A stretch of 64,000 nucleotides of DNA from Pseudomonadota bacterium (GTDB lineage: Bacteria > Campylobacterota > Campylobacteria > Campylobacterales > Sulfurimonadaceae): positions 32,001-96,000 of the forward strand of contig JAZDQA010000008.1 in the NCBI GenBank assembly GCA_043797085.1. The letters are read 5' to 3'. Each line of letters starts with the position of its first letter. Within the stretch, counting starts at the first letter, position 1. The notes beneath the pieces were generated by a model, which searched no databases, had not been told where the DNA came from, and was given only the letters and a program-made list of their open reading frames with translations. Shown here piece after piece: positions 1,245 through 56,890 of this stretch. A program made the position numbers and the translations under genes.

Positions 1245-2516
1245 ATGGGCGCATTAAAGGTTCGAGCATCGGTTGAGGTTAAAAACAAACTCTCGAATAC
1301 TTTGCGTAATTGGCTTCCGATTTTACATTCGAGTTTGAGTGATTTGGGAGAAGCGATGGCACCTTTTGTTGAGGGGAATCCGCTTATTGACGTTAAATCT
1401 GGATACGAAGAGTCATTCGAAGCAAAAATACCGCGAAAAATTCAATATGGCTATGTCCAAAATTCACACTCTGAAGCGATAGAAGCCCTGACAGTACAGC
1501 AGAAAAGTTTATATGATGTTTTAGATGAGCAATGTGAAGCTCCACTTTTTCCGACACCACTCTCGCAAGCAGTCGCTCGTCATGTCTGTGAAAATCTCGA
1601 TGAGGGAGGATATTATGAGGGGGATGGTGAAACTTTTTGTCTCTCAATGGGGATAAGTTTCGAGACGTTTGAACAAATACGAAAGCGTTTTCGATTTATA
1701 GAGCAAGTGGGAATCGGTGCAAGAAATTTACAGGAGTCCTTCTTATTTCAGCTCGACCACACCTCTATAAGCGATACTGTTTATCATCTGGCAACCGACA
1801 TGATAGAAAATTTAGAAAGCCTAAATCGTTACCATAAAGAAGAATATTTTCATGAGGCAATGAGAGTAATAGGGAGTTTTAAAAATCCGCCTGCCATTGA
1901 TTTTTTGGAAAACTCATTGCAAGTTATTCCTGATTTGATGATTTTTAATGATCCGGATACGGGAATAGAAGTTAAGCTCAATGATAACTATTATCCTGCC
2001 ATCACAATCGATACTGAATATGGTGTTGAACACAGCTTTATTACGCAAAAGTTTAAAGAAGCAAAAAGTTTGGTAGATGCTTTGGAAATGCGTAAAGCAA
2101 CCTTGTATAAAGTGGGACTGATGATTGTTGAATATCAGTATACTTTTTTCACAGGCGGAGCGATTAAGCCGTTAACTCTGAAAATGTTAGCCGATGAGTT
2201 TGGTCATAACCCTTCGACGATTTCACGCGCTATTGCCAACAAATACATTGCGTGTGACCGAGGTATTTATGCGATGAAAGAGTTTTTTACGACCGCCATT
2301 GATGAGGATGTATCCAATGCTGCTATCAAAGAGTATGTCAGTGAATGTGTGAAACAAGAATCGCATAAAAAACCGTTGAGTGATATGAAACTTCTGGAGA
2401 TGGTTCAAACCAAATTTAATATCACAATGGTTCGCCGAACAATTGCCAAATACCGTTCACAAGCCAATATCGCAGGGTCAAGTGAGCGTAAAAAACTCTA
2501 TCAGCTAGGACGATGA
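1245..2516 (+). CDS. rpoN: RNA polymerase sigma-54 factor (housekeeping/flagellar locus copy)
   Basis: APLFPT, NPPA, STISRAIANKY HTH, RpoN box VRRTIAKYR; conserved lptB-rpoN synteny. Confidence 0.95.
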   Translation: MGALKVRASVEVKNKLSNTLRNWLPILHSSLSDLGEAMAPFVEGNPLIDVKSGYEESFEAKIPRKIQYGYVQNSHSEAIEALTVQQKSLYDVLDEQCEAPLFPTPLSQAVARHVCENLDEGGYYEGDGETFCLSMGISFETFEQIRKRFRFIEQVGIGARNLQESFLFQLDHTSISDTVYHLATDMIENLESLNRYHKEEYFHEAMRVIGSFKNPPAIDFLENSLQVIPDLMIFNDPDTGIEVKLNDNYYPAITIDTEYGVEHSFITQKFKEAKSLVDALEMRKATLYKVGLMIVEYQYTFFTGGAIKPLTLKMLADEFGHNPSTISRAIANKYIACDRGIYAMKEFFTTAIDEDVSNAAIKEYVSECVKQESHKKPLSDMKLLEMVQTKFNITMVRRTIAKYRSQANIAGSSERKKLYQLGR

Positions 2517-34003: not shown

Positions 34004-37000
34004 ATGGCTAAAAATTTCGGAGCACGTAAAAATAGCAAATATAAAGTCGTAAGTTCGTCTCCGAGTGTCAATAAAACTCCGAGAGGGTCCTCAACCCCAA
34101 ACATTCCTTATGATGTACAACAGGACTTGGGTGGATCAGAGGGGACATCCCCGAATGTCTTTTTTAACAGTGATCCCGTCTATGTAAAAACCTCCCATAG
34201 TACTAAAGTTACCGGAGATAAAGAGGGGAGCTCCGGAGGGGTAAAATCGGGGACGGTCGGTGCCCAGTCCGATCCTATAGAAGCATCTCCGAGTGTATTT
34301 GTCAATGGAAAAGCAGTAGTGCGCGTCGGTGACAAACAATACATGCAAGGGAAAAATACGGTCGGTAAAGTGACTTCATCTGAGAGCGGAAGCGCAGCAC
34401 ATATCACCGATGAGGGAAAAATAGAGGGAATTACTCAGCCCGAACCCATCCCTGAACCGTATGCAAAAAATAAACCCACCAATAACTCAGGAAGCGGTTC
34501 ATTAGGTTCCCGCACCGGTTCCCCAGTCCTCCTTGCCTCAGGTAAACTTTTTTATACTCAAAGTGATGTTGAGCTTATCGCTTCAATAGCTTTTGGGTTA
34601 CGTCGAACTTACATCAGTGACGGGCGAACAGGGATATTCGGCAGAGGATGGCAAAGCAGTTATGAGACTCGACTGAATCGAAGCGATCCGCATACTCTCA
34701 GTCTCATTTTTACCGACGACCAAACCTATCGCTTCACCTATGCCGAGAAAGGCTTTATCGATACGGATGATTTGGGAGCCAAACTCACTATCATCAGTCC
34801 ACAAACCTTTTTACTCGAATACTTTCATGATGCACATACCGAGCTGCATGTGAACGGATTTCTCACCAAGATCAAAGATCGTAACGGCAATACTCTCGAT
34901 TTTATTCGCGAAAATAACGGAAAACTCATCCGCATCACTTCGCATCACGTCACACTATCCTTTAGTTACAACAAAGAGGGGCTTGTCTCGCAGGTAAGTG
35001 ATCATACCCACCGTGTATGGAGCTATACCTATAACACATCAAATGAGCAACCTACTCATTATACCCTCACGCATGTCACTGATCCGATGGGTGGGGTGAT
35101 GCACTATGTCTATCAAAAGAACGCCCCCTATTTACTAGAACGTATCATCGACGAGAGTGGTGTTACAATACTCGATGTGACTTATGATACCGTAGGGCGT
35201 GTTGAGAGCTACACCGAAGAGGCTCTTAGCTATACCTACCGCTATGAGCCAAACCGCGTTATAAAAACAGAGGCTACTGGGGATAAAACGATTTACGGGA
35301 TCGACAACTTCGGAGCCATTCGCGCTATCACCTATCCTGATGGTTCCACAACACGAGAAGAGTATCATGACAACATCTCTATCGTTATCGATGAGGGGGG
35401 AAACACCCATATCCGAGTTTTTGACAACCGTCACCGTCTCATTCGTGAAATCACCCCCGATAAAAGCACTATACTCTATAGCTACAAAGGAAACAACCCC
35501 TACCCATCACACATAAACCGTGAGGATAAAATCACGACGCATGTATATGATGAGCGTTACAATAAACTCAGTACCACATACAGCGACGGGACAACCGAGA
35601 GCTATTCGTATGAGGAGGTGAATGGCAAAGCCAGAGAGACCACCCTGGGGTATGATCGCGGCAACAAGATCACTTTTATCGACCGCTCCGGTGTCTCTAC
35701 CTCGTATGCCTACAACGATTTAGGACAACAGATCCGTATCAGCGATGCACTCGGAGGTGTTACTCAAAACGTCTATGATGATCTCGGTAACCTCGCGACG
35801 ATTATCGATTCACAGGAGCGGATCGTGCAGTTCGAGTACGACACCCTCTCACGACTGATAGCTATCACGGACAATGCTCTCATAAACACTCGCATCTATT
35901 ACGACAACGCAGGACGCATCAGTGCCGTTCGTGAACATAGCGGGGGGATGACCCGATATGCTTATGATAGTAACGGCTTTTTATCACGCATGATCAACCC
36001 CGCCGATCAGCTCCGCATCTACACCTATGAGGGTAATCGTCTCGTCTCGATTTTGCGTGAAGACGGAGAGAGTTACCGATTTACCTATGATAAAAAAGGG
36101 CGCAGAATCTCTCAGAGTATCGGCGATAAAACACTCTCATACAGTTACGACACCTTGGGTAATTTGTTGCGTATCGATGATGGTCTTACCGCTATCGAAT
36201 ACGTCTATGATGTCAATGCCAACATACTATTAGAGCGTTTAGGGGAGGAGAGTGTTTCGTATGCGTATAACACCGATGGTTCCAAACGCTTTATCGGCTA
36301 TGAGGGGATGAACTATCAATTGCAGCGTGATGAGAGGGGCAATCTTGCCCACATACGCAGAGGGTTAGAATTGTACGCCTTCCAATACGATCCATTGAAA
36401 AATCAAACCGCCCTCTCGTATCCCAACCGTCTCACCCAAAAGAGTCTATTTGACCCGTTAGGTCGACTGATAGAGCGGAGCGTTGCCGATGATACCCTCG
36501 TCTATACCTATGACAAAAGCTCACGCCTCACTTCGCGTAACAAACGTCCCTATCTCTATGATGAGGCGGGTCGTATCATCCTCTGTGATGAGGAGAGCTA
36601 TGCCTATGATGAGTTGGGCAATATCATCATCGACAACACCCTGATCGATCCCCTAACCCACCGATTGCTTCGGTACGGTGATAGCGATTTTACCTACGAT
36701 ACATTAGGACAGATGATAGAGAAAACCTCTCCTGAGGCCCGCACTACCTATACCTATGATATCGAGGGGTATTTGATAGGGTATCAGCGCACGGAATCGG
36801 ATTCGTCATTCCGTGCACGGTCATGGAATCCATCCCCCGTATTGGAACTTCGTTTCACCTACGACCCACTAGGGAGACGAATCAGCAAACACTTTAAGTC
36901 GTTTGTGGTGAGCCAGTCGAACCATGAAACGATAGAGGAGTACCACCACCGCTACCTCTACGCAGGAGACAACATCGTAGCCATCTATGATGCAGACACA

Positions 37001-38284
37001 GATGAACTGATTGCTACACTCTTGCATGATGAGGGGATTGATACACCTCTCTCCATCAGTGTTTATCCAACTACTCCTCTTAGTTCTGAGGAGCAATACC
37101 ATTATGAAACATTGGATGAGAGCGAGCAATATCTTTTTAGAGAGTCACGTATTCAAACCTATTACTACCACCGAGATCATCAGAACTCTATTCTCTCTTT
37201 GACAGATAGAGAAGGTAAGATTGTTGAGAGCTACAGTTATGATGCCTATGGGAAAATCATCCATAGTACCAAGAGTGTAGAAACCTATAACCCTTATGGG
37301 TATACGGGACGGGAGATAGATGCGCCTGATCTGTATTACTATAGAGCACGTTATTATGATCCTACTATAGGACGATTCATCACTCCCGACCCGATAGGGT
37401 TTATGGGTGGGGATACGAACTTCTATCGCTATGTTGGGAATGATCCGGTGAATTTTATTGATGATAGCGGGTTTAGTGCACACGCAACAGGCGAAGCAGT
37501 TAATCATTCTCAACAAATGCTTTCAAAAACTACCGCAGGAACGAATCCGACCCCTCCAAAACCTAAACCCTCTAATGGTGGAGGAGCTTCGGCTAAAATG
37601 AATTGCGGGGTTAAGGTGGCAGGAACTCCACCAAAACTAAAAGAGGAATGTTGTAAAAAACCTGTTCCAGCGATAGCTCCAACACCAAATTCACCAAACT
37701 ATTATCAACTTAGACATGATAATTATAATACAAGACATGAACCATGTGGAAAGATTCCTGGTCCACCTGTATATTATAAGGAATATGGTTATTATTATTG
37801 CAATAAGTTTTTGACTAAAACATATCAAAATCTATCACCTGCTGGGCAAAAATGGTTAAACGAAACTTTAAAATTGCTCCAAATATTTATGGACAAAGGA
37901 TTGGTTAATTTAAACTACACATCAACTAACAACAAAAGGTTTACCAATAAAGTCACAACTATTGGACTACAAGCTTTTTATACTGGAATTGAGTGTCGAA
38001 ATATAGATCATAAGGATTTTGCATTTGCGACACACCCTGATGCTTACAGACCAAAAGATATGAAAACTCTCCCTTGCAGCGATTTACTAAAAATTTCTAA
38101 AACTCCCGACTGGAAAGAATGGCTAGATGGTGCTACATGGGAACAAGCCAATATTATGCGTGAGAAAATGGGTGTGTGGTCAACTATTAACAACTGTAGC
38201 AAAGCAGAAGCTGGCATGAGAACCGATCAGATCAAAGAAAAAGCGGAAGATTTACTAGAATCTATACGAAGCTTATTCCAATGA
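34004..38284 (+). CDS. Rhs polymorphic toxin with N-terminal PAAR-like (DUF4150) domain
   Basis: N-terminus SPSVNKTP..IPY...SPSVFVNGKAVVRVGD; GRGW, YD repeats, YYYRARYYDP.IGRF..PDPIG, YVGNDPVNFIDDSG. Confidence 0.93.
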   Translation: MAKNFGARKNSKYKVVSSSPSVNKTPRGSSTPNIPYDVQQDLGGSEGTSPNVFFNSDPVYVKTSHSTKVTGDKEGSSGGVKSGTVGAQSDPIEASPSVFVNGKAVVRVGDKQYMQGKNTVGKVTSSESGSAAHITDEGKIEGITQPEPIPEPYAKNKPTNNSGSGSLGSRTGSPVLLASGKLFYTQSDVELIASIAFGLRRTYISDGRTGIFGRGWQSSYETRLNRSDPHTLSLIFTDDQTYRFTYAEKGFIDTDDLGAKLTIISPQTFLLEYFHDAHTELHVNGFLTKIKDRNGNTLDFIRENNGKLIRITSHHVTLSFSYNKEGLVSQVSDHTHRVWSYTYNTSNEQPTHYTLTHVTDPMGGVMHYVYQKNAPYLLERIIDESGVTILDVTYDTVGRVESYTEEALSYTYRYEPNRVIKTEATGDKTIYGIDNFGAIRAITYPDGSTTREEYHDNISIVIDEGGNTHIRVFDNRHRLIREITPDKSTILYSYKGNNPYPSHINREDKITTHVYDERYNKLSTTYSDGTTESYSYEEVNGKARETTLGYDRGNKITFIDRSGVSTSYAYNDLGQQIRISDALGGVTQNVYDDLGNLATIIDSQERIVQFEYDTLSRLIAITDNALINTRIYYDNAGRISAVREHSGGMTRYAYDSNGFLSRMINPADQLRIYTYEGNRLVSILREDGESYRFTYDKKGRRISQSIGDKTLSYSYDTLGNLLRIDDGLTAIEYVYDVNANILLERLGEESVSYAYNTDGSKRFIGYEGMNYQLQRDERGNLAHIRRGLELYAFQYDPLKNQTALSYPNRLTQKSLFDPLGRLIERSVADDTLVYTYDKSSRLTSRNKRPYLYDEAGRIILCDEESYAYDELGNIIIDNTLIDPLTHRLLRYGDSDFTYDTLGQMIEKTSPEARTTYTYDIEGYLIGYQRTESDSSFRARSWNPSPVLELRFTYDPLGRRISKHFKSFVVSQSNHETIEEYHHRYLYAGDNIVAIYDADTDELIATLLHDEGIDTPLSISVYPTTPLSSEEQYHYETLDESEQYLFRESRIQTYYYHRDHQNSILSLTDREGKIVESYSYDAYGKIIHSTKSVETYNPYGYTGREIDAPDLYYYRARYYDPTIGRFITPDPIGFMGGDTNFYRYVGNDPVNFIDDSGFSAHATGEAVNHSQQMLSKTTAGTNPTPPKPKPSNGGGASAKMNCGVKVAGTPPKLKEECCKKPVPAIAPTPNSPNYYQLRHDNYNTRHEPCGKIPGPPVYYKEYGYYYCNKFLTKTYQNLSPAGQKWLNETLKLLQIFMDKGLVNLNYTSTNNKRFTNKVTTIGLQAFYTGIECRNIDHKDFAFATHPDAYRPKDMKTLPCSDLLKISKTPDWKEWLDGATWEQANIMREKMGVWSTINNCSKAEAGMRTDQIKEKAEDLLESIRSLFQ

Positions 38285-40679: not shown

Positions 40680-41966
40680 ATGATTATCCATTTAGACTTG
40701 GATTGCTATTTTGTCTCTGCTGAGCGAACGAGATCACCTTATTTGAAAGGTAAACCTGTCGTTGTGGTAAAGAGCAGTGATAGGGCAATATTCTCTAAAG
40801 AAGATACCACATGCGTTATGACACGCAGCGTTGGGGGATTTAACTCATTGTTTCAGCATGAAAAGCAATGGAGCCCTTACAATCCTAATCAATGGAAGAA
40901 AGATTTTTTAGACGAGCAGGGGAGAATTCACGGTATCGTTATAGCTAAAAGCTATGAATGCAAACCCTACGGCATAAAAACGGGAACAACCTTGAGTGAT
41001 GCCTTGCGCATGTGTCCGAATCTATTGGTAGTGCAGGGGGATCATCTCTTCTATCAGCTCACTTCAAGCCGTCTTGGCGAATTCCTTCAAACTAAAATAC
41101 CGGTTTTAGAACAATATTCGATTGATGAGTTTTGGGGAGAGCTAGACGGTTGGGTGGAAGATGGAGATGTGTATGATTTTATTGCCGCACTGCAAGAGGA
41201 GATATTACAGAAGTTTGATCTTCCGATGTCCATCGGAGCATCCAGCGCCAAATGGATCGCTAAACTGGCGACGGATTTTAATAAGCCCTATGGTATCACC
41301 ATTGTTCCCAAAGAAAAAATAATTGACTTCGTTTCACCCATGAGTATCGATGCATTTCCCGGAATCGGTAAAGCCCTTTCCAAACGTCTTGGAAGTTACA
41401 AGATAAAAACCTTAGGAGAGGTACTAGAATCCGCTCATATGCTTCAATCATGGGGCAGGGCGGGTGAAGACCTGATCAGACGTATTAGCGGCACTGACCG
41501 CGAGAGGGTTAATCCAAGCCATGATCGTAAATCCATAGGAATATCGCGCAACTTCACAGCAACCATGGACAGAAATGAGATAAAACGCCGAGTTATTATC
41601 CTCTCACGACATTTATCGCATACCATTAGCAAGCTGGAAGTAAATCCAACCACCTATTCATTTGCCCTCAAATACAACGGTGGAGCCTCTTCGAGTATCT
41701 CTACAACCATTGACCGAGCATTTAGCGAAACACTGATGCGCCATATTGCCGTTGAAACGATAAGCAAGATTGATAATCTTCCTCGCTACGGTATTCACTG
41801 TATTTCCATGTCAGCTTCCAACTTTGCCTCCGCAACAAAACCAAAAACGTTCTCCCTGTTCGATCGGGATGATGATGAAAAGTCTGTAGCCTTAGGGGAA
41901 CAGATCACAAAACTGCGCGACAAGTACGGAGTAGATATTTTAAGGTGTGCTATTGAGAAGGGGTAG
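40680..41966 (+). CDS. dinB: Y-family DNA polymerase (DinB/Pol IV-like)
   Basis: HLDLDCYF, SYE...YGIK, YSIDE, AKLATD..KP.G, PGIG. Confidence 0.88.
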   Translation: MIIHLDLDCYFVSAERTRSPYLKGKPVVVVKSSDRAIFSKEDTTCVMTRSVGGFNSLFQHEKQWSPYNPNQWKKDFLDEQGRIHGIVIAKSYECKPYGIKTGTTLSDALRMCPNLLVVQGDHLFYQLTSSRLGEFLQTKIPVLEQYSIDEFWGELDGWVEDGDVYDFIAALQEEILQKFDLPMSIGASSAKWIAKLATDFNKPYGITIVPKEKIIDFVSPMSIDAFPGIGKALSKRLGSYKIKTLGEVLESAHMLQSWGRAGEDLIRRISGTDRERVNPSHDRKSIGISRNFTATMDRNEIKRRVIILSRHLSHTISKLEVNPTTYSFALKYNGGASSSISTTIDRAFSETLMRHIAVETISKIDNLPRYGIHCISMSASNFASATKPKTFSLFDRDDDEKSVALGEQITKLRDKYGVDILRCAIEKG

Positions 41967-46459: not shown

Positions 46460-46475
46460 TGGAACTGTTTTTGCT
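46460..46475 (+). promoter_or_regulatory. Sigma-54 -24/-12 promoter
   Basis: TGGAAC-TGTTT-TTGCT; GG and GC 12 nt apart; matches the Campylobacterota TGGAAC-N5-TTGC form. Confidence 0.7.
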
Positions 46476-51300: not shown

Positions 51301-51395
51301 AAAAATCCTTTTGTATGATTTTAAATTTTCTTAAAGCTATTAACGAATTATACCGAACAATTAATGGCAAAAAAATAGGATACAAATACCCCCTC

Positions 51396-51411
51396 TCGCA
51401 CAAATCTTGCA
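51396..51411 (+). promoter_or_regulatory. Variant sigma-54-type promoter candidate upstream of nifN
   Basis: TCGCAC-AAATC-TTGCA: one change (GG to CG at -24) from TGGCAC-N5-TTGCA; suitably placed before SD AAGGAG and ATG 51438. Confidence 0.5.
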
Positions 51412-51437
51412 ATACAACTTTTAATCAAGGAGTTGCC

Positions 51438-52736
51438 ATGGAATTCTCCCTCAGCAAACACGAACATAAGCCTCTTCAAGTCAACCCGATCAAACACTCT
51501 CAGCCTATGGGAGCGACGCTTGCATTTTTAGGGGTAAAGGATTGTATGCCTCTTATGCATGGTGCTCAGGGGTGTGCGTCGTATACAAAGGTCTTTTTTA
51601 CCCGACATTTCAACGAACCTATCGCGATTAACAACACCTCGGTGAGCGACATCACTGCCGTTTTGGACGGTGGAGATTACTCGATATTGATGGCGATTGA
51701 GAATATCCAAAACAAAGAGAAAAACCTCAAACCCTCTATGATCGGTCTACATACGACAGGATTGACGGAGACTAAAGGGGATGATGTGCGCGGTGTGGGG
51801 ATGCATATTGAGATTCCGTATGTGTTTGTCAATACTCCCGATTATGAGGGGGGGATGGAGAGTGGCTGGGCGCTTACAGTGAGCGCGATGATCGAACAGC
51901 TCACTGTTTCTGCTACCGAGACCAAACCAAATAAACTCGTATTTCTTCCCCATTTGAGTACGCAACCGATTGAGGTGGAGAAGATCAAAGCGATGTGTGA
52001 GGATTTCGGGTTTGAGACCTACGCGCTCCCTGATCTTTCGACTTCACTGGACGGGTATTGGGAAGCGGGGCAGGGGAAACTCTCTAACGGCGGGATAACG
52101 GTCGATCAGATTCGTGATTTAGCCTCCTCTAGCGTTGTGGTCTCTATCGGTGCATCGATGAAAAAAGCGGCTTTGGCACTCCAAAAAAAGAACCCTGCGA
52201 TTGAACATATCCATTTTGATCATTTGATGGGATTGGATGGGTGCGACAATTTTGTAAGTGCATTGATGAAAATCCGACAAGATGAGCCAAAACCGATGAT
52301 AAAGCGGTGGCGTTCACGTTTGCAAGATGCGATGCTCGATTCGCACTTTCTCATCGGGAGTTCCCATTTCGTCATCACGGGTGAACCGGATATGCTGGCG
52401 GGAATGTGTGCGTTGATACGCAGTGTCGGCGGAACCATCGATGCAGCGGTATCTACGACGTTTAGTGATTCGCTGCATCTGATCGAAGCGGAGAATATTT
52501 TCGTTGGGGATTTGGAAGATGCACGACGCTTTTTTGATAAAGCGGATATGGTGATCAGTAATTTTCATGCAGAACGAATCTTGCATAGTTATCACGATAC
52601 GGCATTGGTAATACGAGGTTTCCCCAATTATGAAGAGTTAGGGAATCAGCTTAAAAACGATCAGCTGTATGAGGGAAGTACGTACTTTTTATTTGAAATA
52701 GCCAATGCACTCAGAAAGGTCAAACATGAACACTAA
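51438..52736 (+). CDS. nifN: Nitrogenase FeMo-cofactor scaffold subunit NifN
   Basis: NPIKHSQPMGA, HGAQGC, RHFNEPI, TTGLTET.GDD, LPDLS.SLDG, R.RLQDAMLD.H. Confidence 0.93.
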   Translation: MEFSLSKHEHKPLQVNPIKHSQPMGATLAFLGVKDCMPLMHGAQGCASYTKVFFTRHFNEPIAINNTSVSDITAVLDGGDYSILMAIENIQNKEKNLKPSMIGLHTTGLTETKGDDVRGVGMHIEIPYVFVNTPDYEGGMESGWALTVSAMIEQLTVSATETKPNKLVFLPHLSTQPIEVEKIKAMCEDFGFETYALPDLSTSLDGYWEAGQGKLSNGGITVDQIRDLASSSVVVSIGASMKKAALALQKKNPAIEHIHFDHLMGLDGCDNFVSALMKIRQDEPKPMIKRWRSRLQDAMLDSHFLIGSSHFVITGEPDMLAGMCALIRSVGGTIDAAVSTTFSDSLHLIEAENIFVGDLEDARRFFDKADMVISNFHAERILHSYHDTALVIRGFPNYEELGNQLKNDQLYEGSTYFLFEIANALRKVKHEH

Positions 52737-53178
52737 AATCACAATAGAGGGAAATGACATGATGGATAGCGCTTTGCGAGTTGCTTTTGCAACCAAAGAT
52801 ATGGAAGAGATCAACGCCCACTTCGGAGGGGCAAAAGAGTTTGTGGTGTACAACGTTTCTAAAGACGGTTATGAAGTTTCTGAGGTGATTAAAACCGACA
52901 GTACTGATCCCGAGGATGATGATAAAACCGATTATCGTGTTCGTGCATTGAAAGGTGTCAACATCATGTACTGCGAGAGTATCGGCGGTACGGCGGCGGC
53001 AAAAGTGATCCGTGCAGGGATTCATCCGATGAAAGTGAGTGAATCAACGTTAATCGAAGATGTCCTCAAGACTTTAGTAGGAATGATTAATGGCAATCCG
53101 CCACCGTGGATAAAACAGATTATACAAATGAAAACCGAACACGATGTTCGACAAGACCGATGGGCAGTGGGCGAATGA
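52726..53178 (+). CDS. nifX: FeMo-co carrier NifX
   Basis: VAFAT.D..INAHFG.A, IGGTAAAKV..AGIHPMK, PPPW; follows nifN. Confidence 0.88.
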   Translation: MNTKITIEGNDMMDSALRVAFATKDMEEINAHFGGAKEFVVYNVSKDGYEVSEVIKTDSTDPEDDDKTDYRVRALKGVNIMYCESIGGTAAAKVIRAGIHPMKVSESTLIEDVLKTLVGMINGNPPPWIKQIIQMKTEHDVRQDRWAVGE

Positions 53179-53190
53179 TAAATGAGCATT

Positions 53191-53256
53191 GGGCTTCCTG
53201 CCGAAGGAAACTCAGCGTTAGCGTAGTCAAGAGGGGCTTAGCTCCTTTGGCGTATA
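53191..53256. repeat. GC-rich multi-hairpin intergenic element
   Basis: TTCCT-GCCGA-AGGAA and AGGGGC-TTA-GCTCCT hairpins in an AT-rich background. Confidence 0.5.
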
Positions 53257-53275
53257 AAAATTAAAGGTAATAATT

Positions 53276-53731
53276 ATGGAAGCAGAAAAAACAATGAATC
53301 CTTTTGGTGTGGAACTTATCCGCCAAATCCGTGCGCTTGATCAGTTTGGAAATTGGGCAAAAATTACGGATGATGAATTACTCATCAAGAAATACGTCAA
53401 GACCAAAGAGGAGCTAAAAGCCGTTCCTGTAATCGCGGATATTGATGAGATGATGATAAATGACATCAAAATGATCTACAAAGCGATTGCATTATCGTTC
53501 GAGCGCCAAACGGGTGTTGTGTGCAATGTTATCATGGAGATGAGCCATGAGGGATTTGGTCGATGCGCGGTTCTTACAGATCGTATTTGTATCGTGGACA
53601 AGTATTTTAAAGATGCACACCGTTTTAGCTTTCGTACCCTTGACGCATTGTTCGAAGAAGGGGACAAAAATTTGGCTAAAGCGATTGCAATCTATGAACA
53701 ATTTAAACCATGTAATGGTCAACAGGGGTAA
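53276..53731 (+). CDS. NifX-associated protein (DUF269)
   Basis: ELIRQIRALDQFG.W, MSHEGFGR, KDAHRF.F. Confidence 0.88.
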   Translation: MEAEKTMNPFGVELIRQIRALDQFGNWAKITDDELLIKKYVKTKEELKAVPVIADIDEMMINDIKMIYKAIALSFERQTGVVCNVIMEMSHEGFGRCAVLTDRICIVDKYFKDAHRFSFRTLDALFEEGDKNLAKAIAIYEQFKPCNGQQG

Positions 53732-53734
53732 AAA

Positions 53735-54250
53735 ATGGCAACAATAGGTATATTTTTCGGTAGCAGCAGTGGAGTGACGCGGGGAGCGGCAGAGCTTTTG
53801 TCTGAACAACTTTCAGGTTCTGAATTGATAGATATGGAAGAAGATTTTGACGGGATTGAGCAGTTTGAGGAGTTTGATGTTCTTCTCCTTGGTTCTTCCA
53901 CATGGGGGCAGGGTGATCCGCAACGCGACTGGGTTGATCCGTTATATGATCTTGGGAACGACACTCCTGATCTTAGCGGTAAAAAAGTAGCTTTTTTCGG
54001 TGCCGGTGATCAGAAGACGCACGGGGAACATTTTCTAAGCGCTCTTGGAAAAATGCATGATTTGTTTGTATCTTTGGGTGCGCAAGCGTATGGATTTACC
54101 TCTACCGATGGATATGACTATAAATATTCTCTAGCCGAGCGTGACGGGAAATTTTGCGGGCTTGGAATCGATGATGTGAACCAAGAAGATTTGACCGAAG
54201 AACGTGTTGTCGGTTGGGCAAACCAGCTCAAAATTGAGATGGGATTATAA
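53735..54250 (+). CDS. Long-chain flavodoxin (NifF-like)
   Basis: GSSSGVT, GSSTWGQG, FGAGDQ, GLGIDD.NQ. Confidence 0.92.
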   Translation: MATIGIFFGSSSGVTRGAAELLSEQLSGSELIDMEEDFDGIEQFEEFDVLLLGSSTWGQGDPQRDWVDPLYDLGNDTPDLSGKKVAFFGAGDQKTHGEHFLSALGKMHDLFVSLGAQAYGFTSTDGYDYKYSLAERDGKFCGLGIDDVNQEDLTEERVVGWANQLKIEMGL

Positions 54251-54260
54251 GGAGATTACG

Positions 54261-54635
54261 ATGGGAACGTTAAACGAATTTCAACATATTACAGACACTG
54301 AGGAGTTTTTCGAGTTTTTCGATTTGGCATACGATGAGCGTCTTGTAAATTCAAAACGGTTTCATATCATGAAAAAATTTGGTGAAATGGTCGAAAAATC
54401 CAAAGGTCATGATATGGGCAGTGATGAAAAATTACTTGAGTTCTATAAATTTGCTCTCATCAGTGTGTATAAAAATTTTGAAAACGGTTACAGCCCATCT
54501 GCTGCCGATGTTTGGGAAATGTTTGATAAACCCAGCGGATGCGGTACATGTGCAACGTCCACAAGTTGTAATGATGTAGAGGAGGTGAGTCATGGAGTCC
54601 ATGCCTGTACAAGCCAAGCCACAATTACATTCTGA
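54261..54635 (+). CDS. nifW: Nitrogenase-stabilising protein NifW
   Basis: L.EF..ITDTEEFFEFFDLAYD..LVN.KRFHIMKKF; SD AAGGAG. Confidence 0.85.
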   Translation: MGTLNEFQHITDTEEFFEFFDLAYDERLVNSKRFHIMKKFGEMVEKSKGHDMGSDEKLLEFYKFALISVYKNFENGYSPSAADVWEMFDKPSGCGTCATSTSCNDVEEVSHGVHACTSQATITF

Positions 54636-55038
54636 AGAAGAGATGCCTATCAATGATGAGGCACGAAAAACCAATCTCTATAAGATGTCAACCAAAGATG
54701 AGATTTTATCTCTCTACCGAGTCGGACAGAGGGTTCGATTGGTAAAAGCGATACGAAATGACGGAACCTATCCGCATGCTGGGGTTGGTGATACTCTCGT
54801 TGAGGCAGGGTCAGAGGGTTATGTTCGTAAAATCGGTGATTTTTTACAGACAATTCGAGTATATGAAGTGAACTTTATCGAAGAGGGTTTGACCTTCGGA
54901 TGCCGTGAAGCGGAACTGGAAAGTGCACTCGAAGACGACGGATACGATGAGGTCGCCGAAGAGCTGCAATGGCTCAAAGAACATCGTGCGCAACGTGCCG
55001 CAGAAAAATTGGCGCAATCTCAAGAAGAGGGGGAATAA
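54592..55038 (+). CDS. nifZ: Nitrogenase maturation protein NifZ
   Basis: GQRVR....IRNDGTYP, G.FLQ..RVY.V.F, GCREAEL; SD GGAGG. Confidence 0.92.
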   Translation: MESMPVQAKPQLHSEEEMPINDEARKTNLYKMSTKDEILSLYRVGQRVRLVKAIRNDGTYPHAGVGDTLVEAGSEGYVRKIGDFLQTIRVYEVNFIEEGLTFGCREAELESALEDDGYDEVAEELQWLKEHRAQRAAEKLAQSQEEGE

Positions 55039-55125
55039 TATCGACTCTTCTGAGATTTTTGCATATCGTATCAAGATGAATTGGTGCCCTTGGGGCTAAA
55101 TAATGTAATTAACAAAGGAGTTGGG

Positions 55126-55416
55126 ATGACAACACGTGTAGAAATTATAAATGACTTTTTGGCAATCAACGTCATACCGGGTAAAACGATTCAAGATATC
55201 GTTGAAGCATCGGGAAGTGCATTGCCGTTTGGCTGTCGTGATGGCGAATGCGGTACTTGTGTAGTGATGATCGAATCAGGGATGGAGTTCATGAGCCCTA
55301 TCAATGATAAAGAAAAAGCGGTGCTTAAAACAGTGGGTGAAACCAGTGCAAAAGCACGTCTTGCTTGTCAAATGAAAGTTATCGCCCCAAATGGATTGGT
55401 ACGGGTTAAATATTAA
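55126..55416 (+). CDS. 2Fe-2S ferredoxin
   Basis: FGCRDGECGTC...RLACQ; SD AAGGAG. Confidence 0.92.
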   Translation: MTTRVEIINDFLAINVIPGKTIQDIVEASGSALPFGCRDGECGTCVVMIESGMEFMSPINDKEKAVLKTVGETSAKARLACQMKVIAPNGLVRVKY

Positions 55417-55436
55417 TACGTATATATACGCATTTT

Positions 55437-55511
55437 GTCATTCCGTGCTACGACACGGAATCCAGTGCTCTTAAATCCAGGAGATGGATCCCGTATCAAG
55501 TACGGGATGAC
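55437..55511. repeat. Inverted pair of REP-like palindromes (REPIN-like)
   Basis: GTCATTCCGTGCTACGACACGGAATCCA (55437-55464) and, on the minus strand, GTCATCCCGTACTTGATACGGGATCCA (55485-55511). Confidence 0.8.
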
Positions 55512-55624
55512 GAGAAATCTGCCTCTTTTTTAATCACTTATATCTTTCATAATCCTCTATAATACTTATTGAGAACAAAATATGCAGTCTCTTGGATAGA
55601 TTTATAGATTTTAGGTGGATTATT

Positions 55625-56890
55625 ATGCAAACAACTCTCTCTTATAAACAAAAACAACTCCCACGACTTTCGATGCAGACATGGCTTCCATTGTTGCAAT
55701 GTTCCCTCAATGATCTTGAAAAACATTTACAAGTTATAACCAATGAAAATCCATGTATAGAGATGAAATCAGGTTTTGAAGAGTCCAATGCACAAGCAGG
55801 AGGTGCATCGGCGTACGGTGCATTTCAAAACTATGTTTCGAATGCTTCGAGTGATCAGATTGAATGGCTTAGTATCTCTTCGACTTCATTGTATGAAAAA
55901 CTGGATGAGCAAATTGTAGCACCACTTTTTCCAACCCCAATATCTCAAAAAATTGCTCGACAGATCATCTATTACATCAGTGATGAGGGATATTTTGAGG
56001 GAAATGTGGAAGAGATCGCCCAGCAATGTGATACGGATTCTCATACGGTTGAGCGTGTACGTCAACGGTTTGCGCATTTAGAGCCTTCCGGCGTGGGAGC
56101 GTGTGATTACAAAGAGTCCTTTTTGTTTCAGCTCAATGATTATGAACTGGATGATGATTTGAGTATCTTGCTCTCTGCTATGATTTTACAGTTCGATAAG
56201 ATGGAGAAATTTATCAAAAACCCTCGTTTTGGAGATGCAAAACACGTACTGCAACATCTCAAAAATCCTCCGGCGTTGGAATACATGGAGCCTGAAACGC
56301 AAATTATTCCTGATTTATTTGTCGAGTTTTCAGGATCGGAGTTGAACATTCGGATTAATCATACTTTTTATCCCGATTTAAAAGTCAGTATGATCGATAA
56401 GTACGATAATTTTGCCAAACAAAAATTCAAAGAGGCACGCGAACTCGTCAAACTTCTCGATTTGCGCAAAGCAACTCTCTATAACGTTGCCTTGGTATTG
56501 ATCGAGAAACAGTACAGCTTTTTTATGGGAGGAGAACTTAAACCGCTTCGCCTCCAAGATGTTGCCGATGAACTGGGCTTTAATGAATCCACGATTTCCA
56601 GAGCAATTTCGGATAAATACATGCAAACTGAGCGAGGGTTGTATCCCTTTAAAGATTTTTTCTCCAACTGCATCGGAGAAGTATCGACTTCAGAGATTAA
56701 ACACTTTTTGAAACGGCTTGTTTTGAGTGAAAATAAAGATGATCCGTTTAGTGATAAAACACTGCATGAGATGATCGAAGAGCGATTTGGGGTAAAAATG
56801 GTACGACGGCTTATTGCTAAATATCGTCAAGAACTTGATATTCCATCGTATAAAGAACGATTGTTTTTATATAAGCTAGAGCTGCTTTAA
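55625..56890 (+). CDS. rpoN: Second sigma-54 factor (nif-cluster paralog)
   Basis: WLPLLQ region I, APLFPTP, NPPA, ESTISRAI.DKY HTH, RpoN box variant VRRLIAKYR. Confidence 0.92.
   Translation: MQTTLSYKQKQLPRLSMQTWLPLLQCSLNDLEKHLQVITNENPCIEMKSGFEESNAQAGGASAYGAFQNYVSNASSDQIEWLSISSTSLYEKLDEQIVAPLFPTPISQKIARQIIYYISDEGYFEGNVEEIAQQCDTDSHTVERVRQRFAHLEPSGVGACDYKESFLFQLNDYELDDDLSILLSAMILQFDKMEKFIKNPRFGDAKHVLQHLKNPPALEYMEPETQIIPDLFVEFSGSELNIRINHTFYPDLKVSMIDKYDNFAKQKFKEARELVKLLDLRKATLYNVALVLIEKQYSFFMGGELKPLRLQDVADELGFNESTISRAISDKYMQTERGLYPFKDFFSNCIGEVSTSEIKHFLKRLVLSENKDDPFSDKTLHEMIEERFGVKMVRRLIAKYRQELDIPSYKERLFLYKLELL

Follow-up and report, generated by a model that had tools for sequence, protein, structure and literature searches.

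The window analysed here, a stretch of 64,000 nucleotides (positions 32001-96000 of contig C8 in the analysed genome, G000), belongs to a sulfur oxidiser from the family that holds the named relatives labelled Sulfurimonadaceae, and it carries two genes for sigma-54, rpoN1 and rpoN2, the second of which closes a cluster of genes for fixing nitrogen (nif). The GG of the -24 element is treated as a fixed signature of sigma-54 promoters. We found that the predicted promoters of the nif regulon in this genome lack the first G of this dinucleotide and, moreover, differ from the predicted flagellar promoters in carrying A instead of T at -11. Judged from sequence comparisons, it is very probable that this promoter class is real and tied to one clade of nif-linked RpoN2 proteins, hereafter clade B, which belongs to the Sulfurimonadaceae. 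The fuller model that we favour, to which we give a probability of about 70%, is that RpoN2 of clade B has become relaxed toward the first G, and that the nif promoters are hidden, one way, from RpoN1.

The sigma-54 genes and the two contrasting promoter sites in the window are as follows, with the GG numbered -25/-24, the GC numbered -13/-12 and predicted +1 positions inferred from the GC.

1245-2516 (+): rpoN1, flagellar-type sigma-54 of 423 amino acids, over the cut-offs of TIGR02395 and PRK05932.2-4.
2430-2456: RpoN1 box VRRTIAKYR.
55625-56890 (+): rpoN2, nif-linked sigma-54 of clade B, 421 amino acids from the ATG, over the cut-off of TIGR02395.
56801-56827: RpoN2 box VRRLIAKYR.
56810-56812: codon of RpoN2 Leu396, where Thr is replaced.
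56849-56851: codon of RpoN2 Tyr409, where Ser is replaced.
51396-51411 (+): variant sigma-54 site of nifN, TCGCAC-AAATC-TTGCA (C at -25, A at -11), predicted +1 at about 51422.
46460-46475 (+): canonical TGGAAC-N5-TTGCT site of the RpoN1 class, preceding a VanY-family peptidase gene.

An original prediction, made from the letters of the window, had claimed two full-length and diverged rpoN genes with exactly these two boxes, and on both counts it was right: the proteins of 423 and 421 amino acids are 41% identical, both pass TIGR02395, and the genome holds no further rpoN. RpoN2 scores 318 bits over its full length against this sigma-54 family model (cut-off 277.35). Its last 159 amino acids were modelled as an ELH-HTH (HTH, helix-turn-helix) plus RpoN-domain fold with a predicted local distance difference test score (pLDDT) of 95.4, and the best structure matches of the model are all sigma-54 chains (E 4e-13, root-mean-square deviation 2.6). 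Furthermore, both arginines of the RpoN box (R455 and R456 in E. coli) are kept. On these comparisons RpoN2 is a true sigma-54, with its function predicted. The HTH that binds the -12 element reads HNPSTISRA in RpoN1 and FNESTISRA in RpoN2, and this Pro/Glu difference sets one group of proteins apart from the other; it might bear on the preference at -11 or in the spacer.

The variant site of nifN lies 26 nucleotides before the nifN ATG at 51438. As had been predicted, the nifN leader (51301-51437) contains no GG-N10-GC, carrying TCGCAC-N5-TTGCA instead, and the canonical TGGAAC-N5-TTGCT lies at 46460. Within the window, matches to the variant pattern are no more frequent than chance would give (8 against 5.6 expected, and at least 8 in 23 of 100 shuffles), so that the single nifN instance by itself proved nothing. 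The significance of the site comes from its position in leaders across the genome and from its conservation; in nifN, TC occupies -26/-25 in 26 of 29 clade B sites.

All 15 nif-regulon leaders carry a site of the form xH-G[AC]AC-N5-WTGCA, 26-74 nucleotides before the start. The G at -24, the GC at -13/-12 and the ten-base spacing are present in 15/15, as the search pattern required. At -25, A occurs in 9 leaders, C in 4 and T in 2, and none has G. No promoter-like GG-N10-GC was found in these 15 leaders, the single match falling within a repeat element. Eight of the leaders were picked by homology (nifE, nifN, rpoN2, nifU, nifQ, nifB, nifH and nifS), and seven were recognised partly via the motif itself (P-II, redoxin, flavodiiron, Sel1-NifU, SIR2-like, ferredoxin and TOBE protein). 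The proposal of a nif-dedicated second sigma-54 with a promoter class that lacks the first G is upheld, with GG in 0/15 leaders, and the leaders of nifH, nifE, nifB and nifS, checked for canonical GG promoters, contained none. The description of the element as "-24 CG" has to be revised, since the commonest base at -25 is A (207 of 276 clade B sites, against 55 with C); "not GG, mostly AG" is more accurate. The difference at -11, A in nif and T in flagellar sites, had been overlooked.

The same separation emerged from a scan of all 2311 predicted gene leaders of the genome, with expectations from shuffles. The non-G/TGCA class was found in 20 leaders, against 4.35 expected and a maximum of 8 in 20 shuffles, and the GG/TGCT class in 11, against 0.8 expected. 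The mixed combinations stayed near expectation (GG/TGCA in 1, 0.75 expected; non-G/TGCT in 3, 4.25 expected). As far as leader sequences go, only two classes are above chance, and -25 and -11 both distinguish them. Among the genes of the GG/TGCT set are some with N-termini that, judged from the sequences, resemble fliD, flgF, flgL, flgH and flgB, and the set matches the motif GGaa-N6-tTGCTt that the available text of PMC3847290 gives for C. jejuni from start sites. No variant site was found in the leaders of nifT, nifA, the ferredoxin gene at C8:132698 and the genes at C8:128209, 163015 and 167509; most of these genes sit within operons. Conversely, variant sites also precede an ammonium transporter gene (C7:17070, +), an unassigned gene for 225 amino acids (C12:117209, -) and a gene with a lysyl-tRNA synthetase-like N-terminus (C6:184075, +), some of which may be chance matches.

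To place the two proteins, we used a phylum sample of 301 genomes, of which 259 had an rpoN match and 32 had nifH; families and genera are given by code (f1, g2 and so on). The occurrence of RpoN2 follows that of nifH: family f7 has 7 genomes out of 15 with any rpoN, and exactly these have nifH, and in f4 both genes occur in the same 2 of 12 genomes. In a tree of 73 proteins, RpoN1 (28 rows) groups with the single-copy RpoN of nif-negative relatives, and nif-linked RpoN2 forms a group of 45 rows (support 99). The latter divides into clade A (16 rows, Thr at the RpoN-box position in 15), clade B (27 rows, support 99, where the residue is Ser, Val or Leu) and a pair from f9 that sits on long branches and has Ser. 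The trees are quick maximum-likelihood trees (IQ-TREE for the 73 proteins, and FastTree), in which the placement of the long-branched RpoN2 of G256 and G054 is unsure. The closest named relatives of RpoN2 are 88-99% identical and mostly labelled Sulfuricurvum.

Leaders in relatives were those of genes homologous to the G000 set, and the search left -26 and -25 free. Excluded from the -25 tally were three loci duplicating DNA already in the set, two clade A genomes that were read by eye, genes without a site 20-95 nucleotides upstream, and the nifW, nifT, flavodoxin, nifZ, nifD and TOBE queries. In clade A, represented by 10 genomes, GG is kept at 36 of 37 sites. In clade B without the genera g6 and g7 (84 genomes or loci), only 11 of 276 sites have GG, the other bases at -25 being A (207), C (55) and T (3), although these sites are orthologous, so that the counts describe one clade-wide trait and not hundreds of independent events. 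The distance from site to start codon, with a median of 36 nucleotides, is alike in both clades. The contrast persists even within one genus, g2, where carriers of clade A (G187, G399 and G400) have GG at nifH and carriers of clade B (G245, G411, G419, G421, G477 and G478) have AG. Within clade B, C at -25 goes with the gene (nifN 27/29, nifS 3/3, nifE 17/30), and A goes with the leaders of nifH, nifB, nifU, P-II and rpoN2. In five relatives, 10 of 14 flagellar leaders had a site, every one of the GG/TGCT class. Across the leaders compared, the nif and flagellar promoter sets of Campylobacterota diazotrophs differ at -11 (A versus T), and this difference predates the change at -25.

Other departures were seen outside clade B. 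Several nif promoters that keep GG have TGTA for TGCA (nifH leaders L051, L057, L063, L268 and L269), a change at the other "invariant" dinucleotide. Two nifH leaders from f6 (L048 and L052) have no standard site and share a common TGGAA element and a conserved downstream block instead; their genomes have one sigma-54, of the RpoN1 type. Locus L235 (G216) has a very diverged nif-linked sigma-54, 36% identical to RpoN2, with the box RRTIGKYR and GG promoters.

Genomes with RpoN2 as their only sigma-54 bear on what this protein reads. In g6 and g7, a clade B RpoN2 of the Ser form is the sole rpoN match; G254, G339 and G496, whose genomes are closed, each have a single rpoN and a single enhancer-binding protein and lack FlhA, and an FlhA match is also absent in G346 and G348. 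Their nif leaders are mixed at -25 (G 23, A 18, C 8), so that 26 of 49 sites are non-GG. Since RpoN2 is the only sigma-54 in these genomes, it must, judged from sequence, read the non-GG sites, and the Ser form appears to read GG as well. Among genes of the purine type, 23 of 36 single-sigma sites have G at -25 versus 4 of 78 others, with similar G content in the spacer (0.24 and 0.20, respectively). This pattern is consistent with G having been removed in the presence of RpoN1.

The genome has just two enhancer-binding proteins with strong scores, one of the NifA type (GAF-AAA-HTH_8) and one of the FlgR type (receiver-AAA without HTH_8). Gene context and co-occurrence tie one sigma-54 paralogue to nif and the other to the flagellar genes, each with its activator. 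Both activators depart from the GAFTGA motif: NifA (C8:112075-113703, -) has GAFTDA, as do all 20 NifA-type proteins extracted, and FlgR (C7:9354-10508, -) has GSFTDA.

The model we favour combines these elements. RpoN2 and NifA would serve the nif regulon, and RpoN1 and FlgR the flagellar regulon. The RpoN domain of clade B would no longer need G at -25, accepting A, C or G and seldom T. H. pylori FlgR activates without DNA binding, according to the available text of PMC3930126. Any promoter bound by RpoN1 would be at risk, because an FlgR that acts without binding DNA could act on every closed complex formed by RpoN1. In genomes with RpoN1, almost all nif promoters are without G at -25, which would hide them from RpoN1 and hence from FlgR. 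What can be read at the sequence level comprises the two promoter classes, their tie to the clades, the non-GG sites where RpoN2 is alone and the domains of NifA and FlgR; from these we infer that the sites are active promoters, which sigma binds which of them, the causal residues, the insulating purpose and autoregulation. RNA data for the nifH-nifK stretch consisted of 20 runs, all assembled contigs and none above 0.22 of the words, and the four that were compared held only coding pieces of distant relatives, which carry no information on starts or expression.

Several observations weigh against this model. G338 has both sigmas and FlhA, yet shows GG at 3 of 6 sites, and it groups with g6. 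Clade A genomes with both sigmas keep GG, and the RpoN1-less group consists of two genera only. The shift at -25 may have been a single event, in which case the counts overstate independence. As to the protein, G177, G256 and G054 likewise have Ser, and GG is retained in their nifH leaders; among representative sigma-54s the RpoN-box residue is Thr in 114 of 134 readable cases and S, V or A in the other 20. Val or Ala replaces this Thr in the distant representatives P0062, P0078, P0087, P0099, P0106, P0116 and P0133.

The strongest competitor is a fully orthogonal pair, in which RpoN2 of clade B, at least in its Val and Leu forms, reads A or C and rejects G, while RpoN1 rejects A and C. The original prediction had suggested an orthogonal pair, with CG as its -24 element. 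The distinct non-GG class stood up, and the base at -25 is not neutral, given A 207, C 55, G 11 and T 3 in 276 sites, with T nearly absent despite AT-rich leaders, A kept at a wobble position inside nifN, and G in 0/15 leaders of this genome. Strict orthogonality is doubtful, since the same clade in its Ser form uses GG at 23 of 49 sites as the only sigma-54, and GG is seen in a few Val and Leu loci, at nifU, at P-II or at the site within nifN. We consider a fully orthogonal pair unlikely; RpoN2 of clade B is better described as relaxed at -25, and two-way exclusion may rest on -11.

A second competitor is neutral drift: the contact at -25 would have been lost, discrimination would lie wholly in -11 and the pairing of NifA with RpoN2, and the missing G would reflect AT bias and ancestry without any insulation. 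It accommodates the retention of GG by clade A alongside a flagellar RpoN1, the high GC content (0.47-0.60) of the GG-rich genomes and the grouping of G338 with g6, and the available text of PMC11999139 reports -11 and activator pairing as the determinants in Cereibacter sphaeroides. Against it, G at -25 differs between single-sigma and other sites (23/36 versus 4/78) in the same gene set and at a similar spacer G content (0.24 versus 0.20), the GC-rich two-sigma genome G285 has GG at 0 of 5 sites, and T is avoided. Drift thus seems even less likely than orthogonality, and we retain the relaxed RpoN2 with one-way hiding.

Regarding the residues that might underlie relaxation, S, V or L replaces the RpoN-box Thr (T457) in all 47 clade B rows, with Leu in the present RpoN2. 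A column comparison identified Thr396 and Ser409 as the best-conserved RpoN-domain positions changed in clade B: position 396 is Thr in 93-100% of the other groups, and position 409 is Phe or Tyr in 47/47 clade B rows, with Ser in every row of clade A and of RpoN1. Further residues specific to clade B are Lys378, His381, Gln402 and Phe414. Leu396 and Lys410 of RpoN2 align with T457 and N471 of enterobacterial sigma-54, which the available part of PMC2715252 names, for K. pneumoniae, as hydrogen-bonding to the -24 element. The accessible sections of PMC7057263 and PMC10083551 give no base-level contact for the RpoN-box Thr (T380 in PMC10083551 is an HTH residue). Because Ser occurs together with GG promoters, and S, V or A occur in other sigma-54s, the loss of Thr is not enough. 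The causal change is probably the loss of the RpoN-box Thr together with the change of Ser409 to Tyr or Phe, and not Leu as such.

This leaves little room for the exact model of the original prediction, in which Thr-to-Leu switches GG to CG. The genome does have Leu, and 27 of the 29 nifN sites from clade B carry C at -25. However, the C follows the gene (nifN, nifS and many nifE) and not the residue. The residue is Val in 35, Ser in 16, Leu in 11 and unread in 1 of 63 related loci, and Val, Ser and Leu loci share the same promoter class, the nifN site included. The proposed co-variation of a Leu box with CG promoters was not found, as Leu loci have A 22, C 5, T 4 and G 2 at -25, and Ser occurs with GG at nifH. 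We therefore regard this model as very improbable.

The conserved site in the leader of rpoN2 itself suggests how the relaxed RpoN2 might be supplied, and a third variant site lies inside nifN.

52570-52585 (+): variant site within the coding region of nifN, with A at -25 and a predicted +1 at about 52596.
55558-55563 (+): conserved TATAAT, candidate housekeeping -10.
55571-55586 (+): variant site in the rpoN2 leader (A at -25), conserved across clade B, predicted +1 at about 55597.

TATA[AC]T lies 3-10 nucleotides before the site in 41 of 41 Val and Leu rpoN2 leaders, compared with 1 of 102 other nif leaders, and a housekeeping start from TATAAT would land on the RpoN2 site. Basal RpoN2 would come from this housekeeping promoter, and the overlap would damp RpoN2 with NifA off and amplify it with NifA on; such basal expression and autoregulation are probable. 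The same conserved TATA[AC]T could be taken to mean that some other nitrogen regulator has the motif as its operator, with nif transcribed by a housekeeping sigma, but this is hardly credible when spacing and start-codon distance equal those of GG-bearing orthologous sites, the orthologous sites of g6 and g7 are perfect GG-N10-GC, and only that one of the 102 other leaders has a -10 box at the site.

The site inside nifN is present in 45 of 46 related loci (AG 43, GG 2), in 26 of 28 clade B nifN genes and in 0 of 5 of clade A. Its Leu382 codon is TTG in 0.96 of the rows of 33 aligned nifN, a value that no other of the 32 conserved Leu columns reaches (0.75 for the next, 0.41 as the median). 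In several genomes of clade A, a GG site stands just upstream of nifX. The internal site is likely a promoter for the genes from nifX to ferredoxin.

The canonical NifA enhancer is TGT-N10-ACA. It was not clearly enriched among the 160 upstream regions compared (17 versus 9.2 in shuffles), whereas ACA-N4-TGT occurred in 81 versus 9.6 in shuffles. Of the 30 clade B nifH leaders, 29 have the latter at -82, -92/-93 or -102, and it also occurs in most nifB, nifU and P-II leaders; it is absent from the nifE, nifS, nifQ and rpoN2 leaders. Outside clade B it was found in 2 of 39 leaders, which were shorter (170 nucleotides). ACA-N4-TGT is thus a candidate enhancer. A more far-reaching version, in which all three parts have been recoded and insulation works both ways, namely an RpoN domain (loss of Thr plus Ser409 to Tyr or Phe) that reads A or C instead of G at -25, a regulon-wide promoter dialect and NifA on the inverted ACA-N4-TGT, is tentative and to our mind rather doubtful. 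If it were true, transferring the two residues to E. coli sigma-54 would open a new orthogonal channel at the first G, and this channel would add to the one that the engineered R456 variants provide at the second G.

The remaining features of the nif cluster and its surroundings are listed below; the predicted order of nifN, nifX, the TIGR02935 gene, flavodoxin, nifW-like, nifZ, ferredoxin and rpoN2 was confirmed by profile matches.

481-1242: ABC ATPase gene directly before rpoN1.
40680-41966: DNA polymerase IV gene.
51438-52736 (+): nifN, TIGR01285 over the cut-off.
52723-53178 (+): nifX, TIGR02663 over the cut-off.
53276-53731 (+): NifX-associated protein gene, TIGR02935.
53735-54250 (+): long-chain flavodoxin gene, TIGR01752 over the cut-off.
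54261-54635 (+): nifW-like gene, PRK14102 at E 2e-19, below the curated cut-off.
54592-55038 (+): nifZ, PF04319.
55081-55416 (+): 2Fe-2S ferredoxin gene, PF00111.

Other nif genes are dispersed, with nifU, nifQ, nifS, nifB, nifHDK and nifA on C8 and nifE on C3. A short palindromic repeat lies between the ferredoxin gene and rpoN2 (window 55436-55515) and also in the nifU/P-II and nifT leaders; across the genome, BLAST gave 20 hits to it and a pattern search 32 copies, and we take it to be akin to repetitive extragenic palindromic (REP)-type elements. Beside nifB, the SIR2-like gene with a variant promoter (C8:161483-162313, -) heads a run that includes clpP-like and clpX-like genes (C8:159659-161470, -) and that appears to be a nif-linked protease operon. 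A few bases past the predicted nifB start, 13 of the 15 leaders inspected carry a conserved block with complementary ends (G000:C8:163525-163565 and relatives), a possible RNA hairpin in the 5' untranslated region. Elsewhere in the window, an Rhs/YD-repeat gene of 1426 amino acids is followed by a gene for a BNR-repeat protein (34004-38284).

A whole nif regulon lacks the first G across a family of groundwater and marine sulfur oxidisers, and it looks like a natural, separately wired version of the textbook promoter code. Standard scans based on GG miss such regulons. The sister clade and the single-sigma lineages are natural controls, and a rule for recognition of -25 by the RpoN domain becomes testable via two named residues. 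For nif engineering, the system also points to a second axis along which sigma-54 parts might be made orthogonal. A full-text search, with subscription journals mostly outside its coverage, found no publication that deals with nif promoters, or with a second rpoN, for this family, and the accessible text of PMC12316311 contains no mention of these genera.

Among known systems, the RpoN/FlgR regulon of Helicobacter and Campylobacter corresponds to the RpoN1 side, sharing the GG/TGCT class and an FlgR that has no DNA-binding domain; unlike here, these bacteria, as described in the available parts of PMC3930126 and PMC3847290, have a single sigma-54 and no nif regulon to separate. Clade A RpoN2, from other Campylobacterota families, is the sister group and resembles clade B in being nif-linked with A at -11. 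It differs in that Ser409, GG and, for the most part, Thr are retained, in some sites with TGTA for TGCA, and in having no internal nifN site.

The closest natural parallel is Cereibacter (Rhodobacter) sphaeroides, where RpoN1/NifA and RpoN2/FleQ likewise form a nif and a flagellar sigma-54 with their own activators (PMC11999139; PMC3162934), and promoters of the pair differ at -11, as here (A nif, T flagellar). In the portions of these papers available, specificity comes from -11 and activator pairing (PMC11999139), and the promoters vary only at -11 (PMC3162934). In contrast, the whole nif set described here is also without the first G, and the RpoN domain has clade-specific changes. The closest engineered parallel is sigma-54 R456H/Y/L (Liu et al. 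2025, PMC12096077), in which an altered RpoN box is likewise matched to an altered -24 element and works with NifA on nif promoters. In those forms Arg456 is replaced and the second G is changed (GA, GC or GT), whereas here both arginines are kept, the first G is changed and the system is natural. The available text of that study calls Arg456 100% conserved, argues that nature has settled on a single -24 code and poses the question of why it never varied. Clade B, as read from its leaders and RpoN domains, is a candidate natural exception to this single code, at a different position.

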